Assembly: GCF_045037415.1 (NCBI RefSeq)
Contig: NZ_CP173438.1
From: Escherichia coli
GTDB taxonomy: Bacteria; Pseudomonadota; Gammaproteobacteria; Enterobacterales; Enterobacteriaceae
Length of the DNA: 64,000 bases
Reading direction: 5' to 3' (one strand)
The position numbers were made by a program. How positions within the stretch are numbered: position 1 is the first letter of the stretch; every line of letters starts with the position of its first letter. This document shows positions 26,201 to 29,200 of this stretch, piece after piece.

Positions 26201-29200
26201 CAGCGTCCAACTTCGCCGGACGGTACCCATATGGCACCGATTATGTCTCATGGCCTGGCAACCAATTCAATTGGTTATCTGGTCACTGACGACAATGCGA
26301 TGGTGTGGCGTGGCCCAATGGCGAGCAAGGCGTTAATGCAAATGTTGCAGGAAACCTTGTGGCCGGATCTCGACTATCTGGTGCTTGATATGCCGCCAGG
26401 TACCGGTGACATTCAATTGACACTGGCACAAAACATTCCAGTAACTGGCGCGGTAGTGGTCACCACCCCGCAGGACATCGCGTTGATCGATGCGAAAAAA
26501 GGCATTGTGATGTTCGAGAAAGTCGAGGTTCCGGTGCTCGGTATTGTCGAGAACATGAGTGTGCATATTTGCAGTAACTGTGGTCACCATGAGCCGATTT
26601 TCGGTACCGGTGGTGCAGAGAAACTGGCCGAGAAATACCACACGCAGCTGCTGGGGCAGATGCCGTTACACATCTCCTTACGTGAGGATCTCGATAAAGG
26701 CACGCCAACGGTTATCAGCCGTCCTGAGAGCGAATTTACCGCTATCTACCGCCAGCTGGCTGACCGCGTTGCAGCTCAGCTCTACTGGCAGGGTGAAGTC
26801 ATTCCTGGCGAGATTTCCTTCCGCGCGGTCTAACGCGTATTAACCATTCTGGTTATTCTTCATACACCGCAGAGATGTTACATTGATGCGGTGTATTTGT
26901 TTTTGCAACATTAATGAACACTTATTTAATGTTGCGAATATTCTGCGGACCTTCGTCCGAAACTCTACAAAGTCGATTGATCGTACCGGCGATGCTTCAT
27001 TATCATCCTTCGTGGCTGTGTAGTGGATGTACAGCTATAGTTTGTTATGCACTCATTCTTTCCAGGCATAACCTTTACTACAGGGATAACGTTCAATGAA
27101 TAAGTACTGGCTGTCAGGAATTATTTTTCTTGCCTATGGATTGGCTTCTCCCGCGTTCTCTTCAGAAACTGCCACATTAACGATTAATGGTAGGATCAGT
27201 CCCCCGACATGCAGTATGGCTATGGTTAATGGTCAACCTCAACAGCATTGTGGTCAGTTAACGTATAATGTTGATACCCGTCATCAGGTTTCTTCGCCAG
27301 TTAAAGGTGTAACGACGGAAGTGATTGCTGCAGATAGCGATAGCAAACGTCGAATCGTGTTAAATCGCTACGATTAATTTGCCACCCTGGTTTTAATCGG
27401 ATTTAGAAAGCTTAAATCATTTACATGAATGGTTTAAGCTTTTTTATTGATATTAATAATACAATTTATAGAAATCCACATTAATTAATAGATTTGATAA
27501 ATATTTAATGTGCTTAAGTATTTGTTGTATTTATATTGCAATAGTTAATTTGCTTTAAATCAATAAAACAATGTGTTTACATTGCGGCAACTTTTTTGGT
27601 GTGAGAAATTTGTTTCCAAGAGATACAGACTCTTAACAACCAAAAATAGATTTTATTAAGGAGCATATTATGAAACGTTCAATTATTGCTGCCGCTGTTT
27701 TTTCTTCTTTTTTTATGAGCGCTGGGGTATTTGCCGCAGACGTTGATACCGGAACATTAACCATTAAAGGGAATATTGCAGAATCTCCGTGTAAATTCGA
27801 AGCGGGTGGCGATTCAGTAAGTATTAATATGCCAACTGTACCAACCACTGTCTTTGAAGGTAAAGCTAAATACTCGACCTATGATGATGCAGTCGGTGTA
27901 ACCAGCAGCATGTTAAAAATTAGCTGTCCGAAAGAAGTTGCTGGTGTAAAACTCTCGTTGATTACCAACGATAAAATAACCGGAAACGATAAGGCGATAG
28001 CCAGTAGCAACGATACCGTGGGTTATTATCTCTATTTAGGTGATAACAGCGATGTCCTGGATGTTTCTGCACCTTTCAACATCGAGAGTTATAAAATAGC
28101 GGACGGTCAATATGCCATTCCGTTTAAAGCAAAATACCTGAAACTGACAGATAACTCAGTGAATTCAGGTGATGTGTTATCTTCCCTGGTTATGCGTGTG
28201 GCGCAGGATTAATAAATAAAATTGCAAGATTCTTCAGGTAATTAACATGGCCGCTATCCCCATGGCGGCCTTTTAATTTAAGAGGCATTAAGATGAAAGG
28301 ATTATTAGCTTTACTCATTTCTTCTATGGTCCTTCCTGCACATGCCGGTATTGTTATCTACGGGACGCGTATTATTTACCCGGCAGAGCACAAAGAAGTG
28401 ATGGTGCAGCTGATGAACCAGGGAAATCGTTCTTCGCTGATGCAGGCGTGGATTGATGATGGCGATACGTCATTACCACCAGAAAAAATTCAGGTTCCTT
28501 TCATGTTAACGCCACCAGTGGCAAAAATAGGGGCAAATTCCGGGCAGCAAGTAAAAATTAAAATTATGCCGAATAAACTACCCACTAATAAAGAGAGTAT
28601 TTTTTATCTGAATGTTCTGGATATTCCACCAAATAGTCCAGAACAAGAAGGTAAGAATGCACTGAAGTTTGCGATGCAAAACAGAATTAAGTTGTTTTAC
28701 CGGCCAGCGGGTATTGCTCCGGTAAATAAAGCGACCTTTAAAAAGTTACTGGTAAATCGCAGTGGCAATGGATTGGTGATAAAAAATGACTCAGCTAATT
28801 GGGTGACGATTTCGGATGTCAAAGCTAATAATGTCAAAGTCAATTATGAAACTATTATGATTGCCCCCTTAGAAAGTCAGAGTGTTAATGTCAAAAGTAA
28901 TAATGCAAATAACTGGCATCTGACCATTATCGATGACCATGGCAACTATATTAGTGACAAAATTTAATTGCAGGAGCTGCCTATGTTGAGAATGACCCCA
29001 CTTGCATCAGCAATCGTAGCGTTATTGATCGGCATTGAAGCTTATGCAGCTGAAGAAACCTTTGATACCCATTTCATGATAGGTGGAATGAAAGACCAGC
29101 AGGTTGCAAATATTCGTCTTGATGATAATCAACCCTTGCCGGGGCAGTATGACATCGATATTTATGTCAATAAGCAATGGCGTGGGAAATATGAGATCAT

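Follow-up and report, generated by a model that had tools for sequence, protein, structure and literature searches.

Among the H-NS-silenced cryptic chaperone-usher operons of Escherichia coli K-12, yeh is one for which several kinds of evidence have been published. The K-12 DNA at yehD/yehE carries promoter island 2190229_357, which is H-NS-associated (PMC3661553, Table 1), yehDCBA belongs to two H-NS regulons defined by chromatin immunoprecipitation (ChIP) and is 3.6-fold up on over-production of SlyA (PMC5797941, Table 2 and text citing Korea et al.), and yehEDCBA lies inside a static silenced protein-occupancy domain (bioRxiv 10.1101/2024.06.20.599902). Published yeh reporter fusions are expressed in stationary or static culture, and more at 28 C, while a sigma-S RNA polymerase ChIP-seq peak at 2190800-2190949 (U00096.2) has been assigned to yehE in K-12, with no start site listed (PMC4447067). 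Here we analysed the orthologous DNA of an E. coli strain other than K-12, namely the 836-bp segment 26834-27669 of a 64-kb stretch (hereafter the window, to which all positions refer), which runs from the end of apbC through yehE to the start of yehD. We read this segment as DNA that delimits and controls three consecutive transcription units, namely apbC, yehE and yehDCBA; in this reading, the probability of which we put at about 0.65, a perfect palindrome upstream of yehE is a drifting repeat and the fimbrial operon would be silenced by H-NS. The features on which it rests, with the strand where one applies, are the following.

25724-26833, plus strand: apbC (mrp) coding sequence, the upstream transcription unit (open reading frame list; annotated RefSeq orthologues of 1110 bp)
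26862-26904, plus strand: putative intrinsic terminator of apbC, a 10-bp perfect stem and a T-run (fold, pairing conservation, covariation)
26905-26935, no strand: quasi-palindrome, perfect in the window lineage, GCAACATTAA-N11-TTAATGTTGC (repeat finding; variant counts in 5,422 genomes)
26936-26976, no strand: conserved block that opens with GAATATTC and keeps a constant distance to the yehE promoter, a candidate for regulatory DNA upstream of it (83-90% identity across Escherichia species)
26977-27006, plus strand: predicted yehE promoter, -35 TTGATC, 18-bp spacer, -10 TATCAT (consensus scan, 9/12 matches)
27007-27095, plus strand: yehE leader, with a hairpin at 27012-27038 and a dyad GTTATGC (27044-50) / GCATAAC (27066-72) (conservation)
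27096-27377, plus strand: yehE, encoding a 93-aa DUF2574 protein (Pfam PF10836, E 1.9e-51)
27405-27447, plus strand: putative intrinsic terminator of yehE, a 15-18 bp stem with its loop at 27422-27427 and a T6 run (terminator scan, fold, covariation)
27448-27524, no strand: distal AT-rich spacer, 16.9% G+C, apparently evolving neutrally and bearing H-NS-motif matches (52-79% identity across Escherichia)
27525-27669, plus strand: predicted yehD (stcA-type) promoter and leader block, conserved (alignment conservation)
27670-28212, plus strand: yehD, first gene of the yehDCBA chaperone-usher fimbrial operon (open reading frame list; Pfam Fimbrial PF00419; RefSeq orthologues)

The original prediction had pointed to a terminator and a palindrome between apbC and yehE, a dyad downstream of yehE and AT-rich DNA before yehD, and direct reading together with repeat finding located each of these elements where it had placed them. 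Measured against first-order Markov simulations, the window contains 12 perfect inverted repeats with 10-bp arms (spacer 3-20) where 1.15 +/- 1.3 are expected, and 3 of these 12 fall within the segment, for which 0.04 are expected. The excess in the segment is thus real and non-random, and two terminators account for most of it. For the analysis of conservation we compared the window with the corresponding DNA of eight more E. coli lineages, and with 13 further loci obtained through an alignment of YehE homologues from one-genome-per-species contigs (E. albertii, E. whittamii, four other Escherichia lineages, six Citrobacter and S. enterica subsp. arizonae). The third codon positions of apbC served as the neutral yardstick; relative to the window they are 65-74% identical in other Escherichia species and 47-57% identical in Citrobacter and Salmonella, and silent-site identity within E. 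coli is 92%. The segment itself shares 94% identity with K-12, and 949 of 5,422 complete E. coli genomes match it at 99% or more.

The palindrome consists of the arms GCAACATTAA (26905-26914) and TTAATGTTGC (26926-26935) around an 11-nt spacer, and its 10+10 dyad is perfect in the window strain. Four states are found among the E. coli genomes, given here as left arm, right arm, pairs formed and number of genomes.

GCAACATTAA / TTAATGTTGC: 10/10 pairs, 564 of 5,422 genomes (~10%)
GCAACATTAA / TTAATGCTGC (E2348/69 type): 9/10 pairs, 26 genomes
GCCGCATTAA / TTAATGCTGC (Nissle, ATCC 11775 type): 9/10 pairs, about 750 genomes
GCCGCATTAA / TTAATACTGC (K-12, O157, most others): 8/10 pairs, the remaining genomes

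Other Escherichia species have left arms resembling GCAGC[T/C]TTAA and an almost invariant right arm, TTAATGCTGC, with 7-9 of 10 positions paired, and nothing comparable exists in the Citrobacter or Salmonella loci. Pairing of the helix amounts to 82% over the genus as a whole, four pairs differ by mismatches only, and the sole two-sided change is that of the window strain. The 31 bp as a whole are 71-84% identical to other Escherichia species, which is near the silent-site range, and 87% identical within E. coli, which is below the silent-site value, while the left arm diverges about as much as silent codon positions do. As such, the suggestion that the palindrome is a regulator binding site did not hold up: its perfect form is restricted to about 10% of E. 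coli, K-12 has 8 of 10 pairs, the left arm is near-neutral, and the symmetric element is not conserved, the outcome that had been named in advance as speaking against it. We conclude that the palindrome is an imperfect, drifting repeat that has become perfect in one lineage, and not a conserved regulator site, its drift being apparently neutral. A symmetric operator at 26905-26935 is not supported: the window strain has the dyad symmetry, but the orthologous loci do not conserve both half-sites.

A transcription-factor site for the yehE promoter, at about -78 to -108, was nevertheless weighed, in which the palindrome, or at least its right arm with GAATATTC, would be bound and the perfect dyad would strengthen or alter the binding. 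The right arm and the block 26936-26976 are conserved above silent sites, with no indels up to the -35 hexamer, the centre of the palindrome would lie ~93 bp 5' of the inferred start and would face the same side of the helix as the classical upstream sites of activators, one two-sided change in the palindrome preserves pairing, and perfect dyads are genuinely more frequent than chance predicts. Most strains and species, however, can have no symmetric operator because the left arm is unconserved, and most E. coli carry two symmetry-breaking changes. Nor does the element recur: we found no second copy in the window or genome, where a BLAST search with the 61-mer centred on the palindrome hit one place per genome (median 1, maximum 2) and nothing like it elsewhere in E. 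coli genomes, the 18-mer of right arm plus GAATATTC is unique within the window, and 20 one-mismatch half-site matches in the window (11.4 expected) include none that makes another dyad, although such searches (window scan, 61-mer BLAST) would miss degenerate sites. Literature searches for binding-site or transcription-start reports on yehE gave nothing useful. A 10-N11-10 layout sets the two half-site centres at a distance of 21 bp, a geometry that is uncommon among dimeric regulators and counts against an operator, and to our knowledge it matches neither the sequence nor the spacing of MlrA (11-N12-11), Xer/dif, LysR (T-N11-A), Fur or IHF operators. We therefore regard a transcription-factor site here as doubtful.

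The palindrome might also act as an RNA hairpin, either as a back-up or insulator for apbC read-through transcripts or as part of an unannotated transcript. The window version folds stably, at -12.5 kcal/mol (z -5.9) on the plus strand and -10.1 kcal/mol (z -3.9) on the minus strand, and directly adjoins the 3' end of the apbC terminator T-run. However, no U-run follows it on either strand, so that it is not terminator-like, and its location between a strong terminator and the yehE promoter means that it is probably untranscribed. The hairpin is, moreover, weak in its K-12 form (-4.8 kcal/mol, z -2.1), its pairing is poorly maintained across the genus, and an Rfam scan of 26000-28500 at E<=1 returned nothing relevant, all of which makes an RNA role very improbable.

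Beside the palindrome, the O157:H7 'yhl' allele changes character: it is of K-12 type up to 26943 and then, from 26944, follows Escherichia sp. E1V33 base for base up to the yehE ATG, where the alignment ends. The switch at 26943/26944 places the left junction of the yeh/yhl cassette against the palindrome and GAATATTC, and the palindrome could on this ground be thought to mark or promote a recombination junction for exchange of yehE-yehDCBA (yeh versus yhl) cassettes. This is, however, a single junction in one lineage, endpoints of homologous recombination are expected anywhere in conserved flanks, and neither a site-specific recombinase gene nor a second matching site was seen. The spacer of the palindrome is also too long for an Xer-type site, which counts against a junction, and we consider such a role extremely improbable.

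With the palindrome read as a drifting repeat, the origin of its perfect form can be followed through related haplotypes. Three haplotypes ~1% apart (the window, CH4811 and E2348/69) differ at 26907-8 (AA/CG) and at 26932 (T/C). Of the roughly 36 sites that vary within 1,861 bp, 3 thus lie in the 20 arm positions, against ~0.4 expected. The arms are thus a local substitution hotspot, as expected of hairpin-prone quasi-palindromes. Because a 9/10 state with the same left arm exists, the final step was a single C-to-T at 26932, which turned an A.C mismatch into an A-T pair; this change is equally well compatible with compensatory fixation, with templated quasi-palindrome correction and with a plain transition. 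We propose that the palindrome would be an old imperfect inverted repeat, its symmetry without detectable selection and its left arm drifting near the neutral rate, and that in the window lineage a G/C-to-A/T change on both arms would by chance have completed it, with C-to-T at 26932 coming last.

A two-step origin by template switching, in which the right-arm C-to-T came first and the left arm was then copied from it, was not borne out. The intermediate that it predicts, GCCGCATTAA/TTAATGTTGC, has no full-length exact match in 5,426 genomes (the top hits listed reached 98.4%, and one record in the at least 99% band lies outside that listing), the intermediate that does exist joins the new left arm to the old right arm, and the CG/AA difference at 26907-8 is the complement of none of the observed right arms. 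The inferred ancestral perfect form, GCAGCATTAA/TTAATGCTGC, has zero exact matches in E. coli genomes, and the local genealogy around the palindrome is mosaic. Since the palindrome was noticed for being perfect, an ascertainment bias, no selection is inferred from its perfect symmetry, and the case counsels caution more widely, as the perfect symmetry of a palindrome seen in a single genome can be no more than the state that a drifting repeat has reached in that lineage.

Several observations weigh against the reading as drift and silencing. Of 6 other Escherichia species, 5 share the right arm TTAATGCTGC exactly, and this, together with the fixed spacing and the 83-90% conservation downstream, indicates that part of the element is constrained, which makes a protein site conceivable. 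The window lineage shows one two-sided G-C to A-T change and one change that restores an A-T pair, and selection for symmetry would likewise yield two-sided and pair-restoring changes. Complementarity of 7-10 of 10 positions is kept throughout the genus, somewhat above the roughly 7 of 10 under neutral decay of an ancestral perfect repeat, a figure that is a rough, uncomputed estimate from silent-site divergence. Finally, the H-NS and sigma-S occupancy comes from K-12, which is 94% identical here, and not from the window strain, in which the mechanism would be the same by analogy.

The constraint that remains upstream of yehE is one-sided. From the right arm to the -35 hexamer the Escherichia alignment contains no indels, and indels and substitutions pile up on the left side; in Citrobacter and Salmonella the block 26936-26976 finds weak positional resemblance only, as judged by eye. 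The right arm and the GAATATTC block thus look constrained, and may form a one-sided upstream element of the yehE promoter. The promoter itself is predicted from a motif of the form TTGAnn-18-TAnnnT that all 21 loci from the three genera carry at a distance of 88-92 nt from the yehE ATG, with a spacer sequence that is unrelated between Escherichia and Citrobacter, and this position-conserved motif indicates that yehE has its own promoter. Converted with a 1,976-bp offset from U00096.2 to U00096.3, which was verified on lpp and on the promoter-island coordinates, the sigma-S peak of K-12 falls at about window 26967-27116 and covers the yehE promoter, not the palindrome. We propose that yehE would run from its own promoter at 26977-27006, bound by sigma-S RNA polymerase in K-12, with a highly conserved ~80-nt leader.

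This leader (~89 nt from the promoter to the ATG) is 92-97% identical across Escherichia, compared with 76-95% for the yehE coding sequence, and its dyad GTTATGC/GCATAAC is invariant around a variable 15-nt loop. The leader of Citrobacter and Salmonella differs, being unrelated to that of Escherichia (43-51% identity). As a structured RNA the leader found no support: the minimum free energy of the whole leader is no better than that of shuffles (z +0.9), and no covarying pairs were found, a test without power as the stems never vary. A 61-codon open reading frame (26914-27099) begins in the palindrome, and its stop codon overlaps the start codon of yehE as ATGA. This frame was considered as a gene that would explain the conservation of the leader and was rejected, being intact in some E. 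coli lineages only and elsewhere interrupted by stops or a 1-nt deletion. It is also conceivable that the right arm, the GAATATTC block and the near-invariant leader together make up an undescribed control module of yehE, and that in the window lineage the completed 10+10 palindrome would rewire yehE expression by adding a new symmetric site or a structure prone to form hairpins; we think this unlikely.

Punctuation of the first two units is provided by hairpins that have the properties of intrinsic terminators. The apbC stop codon ends at 26833, and in the 262-bp spacer between apbC and yehE the arms ATACACCGCA (26862-26871) and TGCGGTGTAT (26887-26896) are followed by the run TTGTTTTT (26897-26904). 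The hairpin folds as RNA at -17.6 kcal/mol (z -5.0 versus shuffles), all 10 pairs are retained in 13 Escherichia sequences (100% paired), with 2 pairs changed on both sides, and a homologous hairpin is found in Citrobacter and Salmonella as well. The terminator that had been proposed after apbC is therefore borne out, as this is a stem-loop with a T-run just past the stop codon and with conserved pairing; by these features it would act as a canonical intrinsic terminator, at which apbC transcription would stop within 26862-26904. In K-12 and O111 one T of this run, at the position equivalent to 26898, is replaced by A (TATTAGTTTTT). In disrupted loci, among which are NZ_CP196241.1 and NCTC9967, another kind of change is seen close by, an IS1 lying directly after the apbC terminator region, with a deletion reaching a yehA remnant beside rcnB.

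The dyad downstream of yehE had been described as a 9-bp-arm element (27408-27441). It is present and slightly larger, with perfect arms of 10 bp, AAAGCTTAAA (27407-27416) and TTTAAGCTTT (27433-27442), and its character is that of a terminator, not of a regulatory dyad: the stem grows to 15-18 pairs followed by T6, begins 28 nt past the stop codon and folds at -18.3 kcal/mol (z -7.1). Pairing is kept in 95.6% of cells over 18 sequences from three genera, and 5 pairs (31 cells) are changed on both sides, for example U-A / C-G / A-U and G-C / U-A / A-U / C-G. The covariation score is 0.359, versus 0.094 +/- 0.016 for shuffled alignments, none of 500 shuffles reached it, and in a control in which the partners were slid by 1-3 columns pairing fell to 32-58%. 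On this covariation the dyad is an intrinsic terminator, presumably active, which punctuates yehE as a unit of its own, and the element at 27405-27447 would insulate the fimbrial operon from yehE transcription. The apex of the stem (ATCATT-loop-AATGAT, 27422-27432) is conserved in sequence from Escherichia to Salmonella, and the lower stem covaries freely; plain terminators do not usually show such conservation of the apical sequence, which might point to an additional role.

Beyond the yehE terminator, the 292-bp spacer between yehE and yehD is dominated by AT-rich DNA. The 227 bp from 27443 to the yehD ATG (27670) have 22.9% G+C, and the lowest-GC 200 bp of the entire window are those at 27412-27611 (21%, versus 50.7% overall). 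Matches to the high-affinity H-NS motif TCGATAAATT occur at 27463-72 (1 mismatch) and at 27483-92 and 27494-503 (2 mismatches each), a density of 10 per kb in the AT-rich region compared with 1.4 per kb in the window. Promoter island 2190229_357 corresponds to about window 27331-27687 and contains the distal spacer. The proposal that this DNA is an H-NS-silenced cryptic fimbrial promoter is thus well supported by the literature on its K-12 orthologue, together with the lowest G+C of the window, and the comparison with K-12 H-NS data that had been suggested as a check agrees with it, the orthologous interval being the H-NS-associated promoter island and yehDCBA a member of both ChIP regulons. 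H-NS would bind and spread over the AT-rich tract, in which ~77 bp of neutral DNA with nucleation-type motifs precede the 145-bp conserved block, and would thereby silence yehDCBA, a silencing that SlyA, low temperature or stationary phase would relieve.

What the alignments appear to add to the K-12 picture is that the AT-rich tract is two-part, with a neutral distal spacer and a 145-bp proximal block that is conserved as far as Salmonella and Citrobacter. The block 27525-27669 is 86-94% identical in Escherichia and 74-79% identical in Citrobacter and Salmonella, where apbC third positions reach 47-57%. It contains the dyad TTGCTTTA (27550-57) / TAAAACAA (27564-71), TTTACA at 27576-81, a small hairpin AAGAG (27618-22) / CTCTT (27630-34) with a variable loop, and the Shine-Dalgarno sequence AAGGAG at 27658-63. 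The dyad, in the form TTG[T/C]TTTA-N6-TAAAACAA just 5' of TTTACA, shows next to no variation among 15 sequences from Escherichia, Citrobacter and Salmonella. For the fimbrial promoter, the dyad at 27550-27571 makes a stronger operator candidate than does the palindrome at 26905-26935. As the conserved portion of the DNA controlling yehD lies at 27525-27669, reporter and mutational studies of Yeh/Yhl/Stc regulation should concentrate there.

The surrounding gene order, established from the open reading frame list, RefSeq orthologues and Pfam, is metG (minus strand), apbC and yehE (plus strand), yehD, yehC and yehB. Homologues of YehE were found only in Escherichia/Shigella, Citrobacter and Salmonella arizonae, and their genes always stand 3' of apbC and are followed by a yehD-like gene (MKRS...). 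YehE and YehD are not significantly similar in BLASTP (E 5.8). The N-terminus of YehD (residues 1-44, a signal peptide and a TLTI-G motif) matches the DUF2574 profile at E 8e-4, under the curated cutoff. YehE looks like a pilin-derived mini-protein that always precedes the gamma-4 (Yeh/Yhl/Stc) type of fimbrial operon. One strain has yehE split by an IS1 insertion, and in an O111:H8 strain yehD is annotated as a frameshifted pseudogene.

Taken together, the first interpretation of this DNA was right about the apbC terminator and the silenced AT-rich fimbrial promoter, and was not borne out in its suggestion of a regulator binding site at the palindrome, while the dyad proved to be a terminator. 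Although some papers write of a 'yehEDCBA operon', yehE is a separate, sigma-S-associated unit with a conserved terminator before yehDCBA. Beyond such annotation the significance of the segment is slight: it is ordinary and largely already known, as the H-NS-silenced yeh promoter has been published for K-12 and both hairpins are routine terminators.

The comparison with known systems bears this out. Set beside the H-NS-silenced cryptic chaperone-usher operons of K-12 (yeh, yad, sfm, elf/ycb) and the promoter islands, the segment is the same locus with the same kind of AT-rich upstream tract, and relative to the K-12 yeh locus it holds nothing different in kind. The apbC and yehE hairpins are like typical intrinsic terminators in lying just past a stop codon, on the coding strand, with a T-run and compensatory changes, and the E. 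coli yehE stem differs from them in being unusually AT-rich (3 G-C pairs in 18), whereas its Citrobacter and Salmonella versions are more G+C-rich. Quasi-palindrome hotspots, in which imperfect inverted repeats undergo template-switch 'correction', are known from E. coli genetics, and the palindrome resembles them in being an imperfect repeat with an excess of arm substitutions and, in one lineage, a new right arm that is the exact complement of the left. Unlike a quasi-palindrome template switch, however, its last step was a single C-to-T that an ordinary transition explains equally well, so that it is at most a candidate member of this class. The locus is also like the Salmonella stc locus (gamma-4 chaperone-usher), which in S. 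enterica subsp. arizonae, as in Citrobacter, has apbC, a yehE homologue, a terminator, a conserved promoter block and a first fimbrial gene, and these versions are unlike the Escherichia locus in being without the palindrome.

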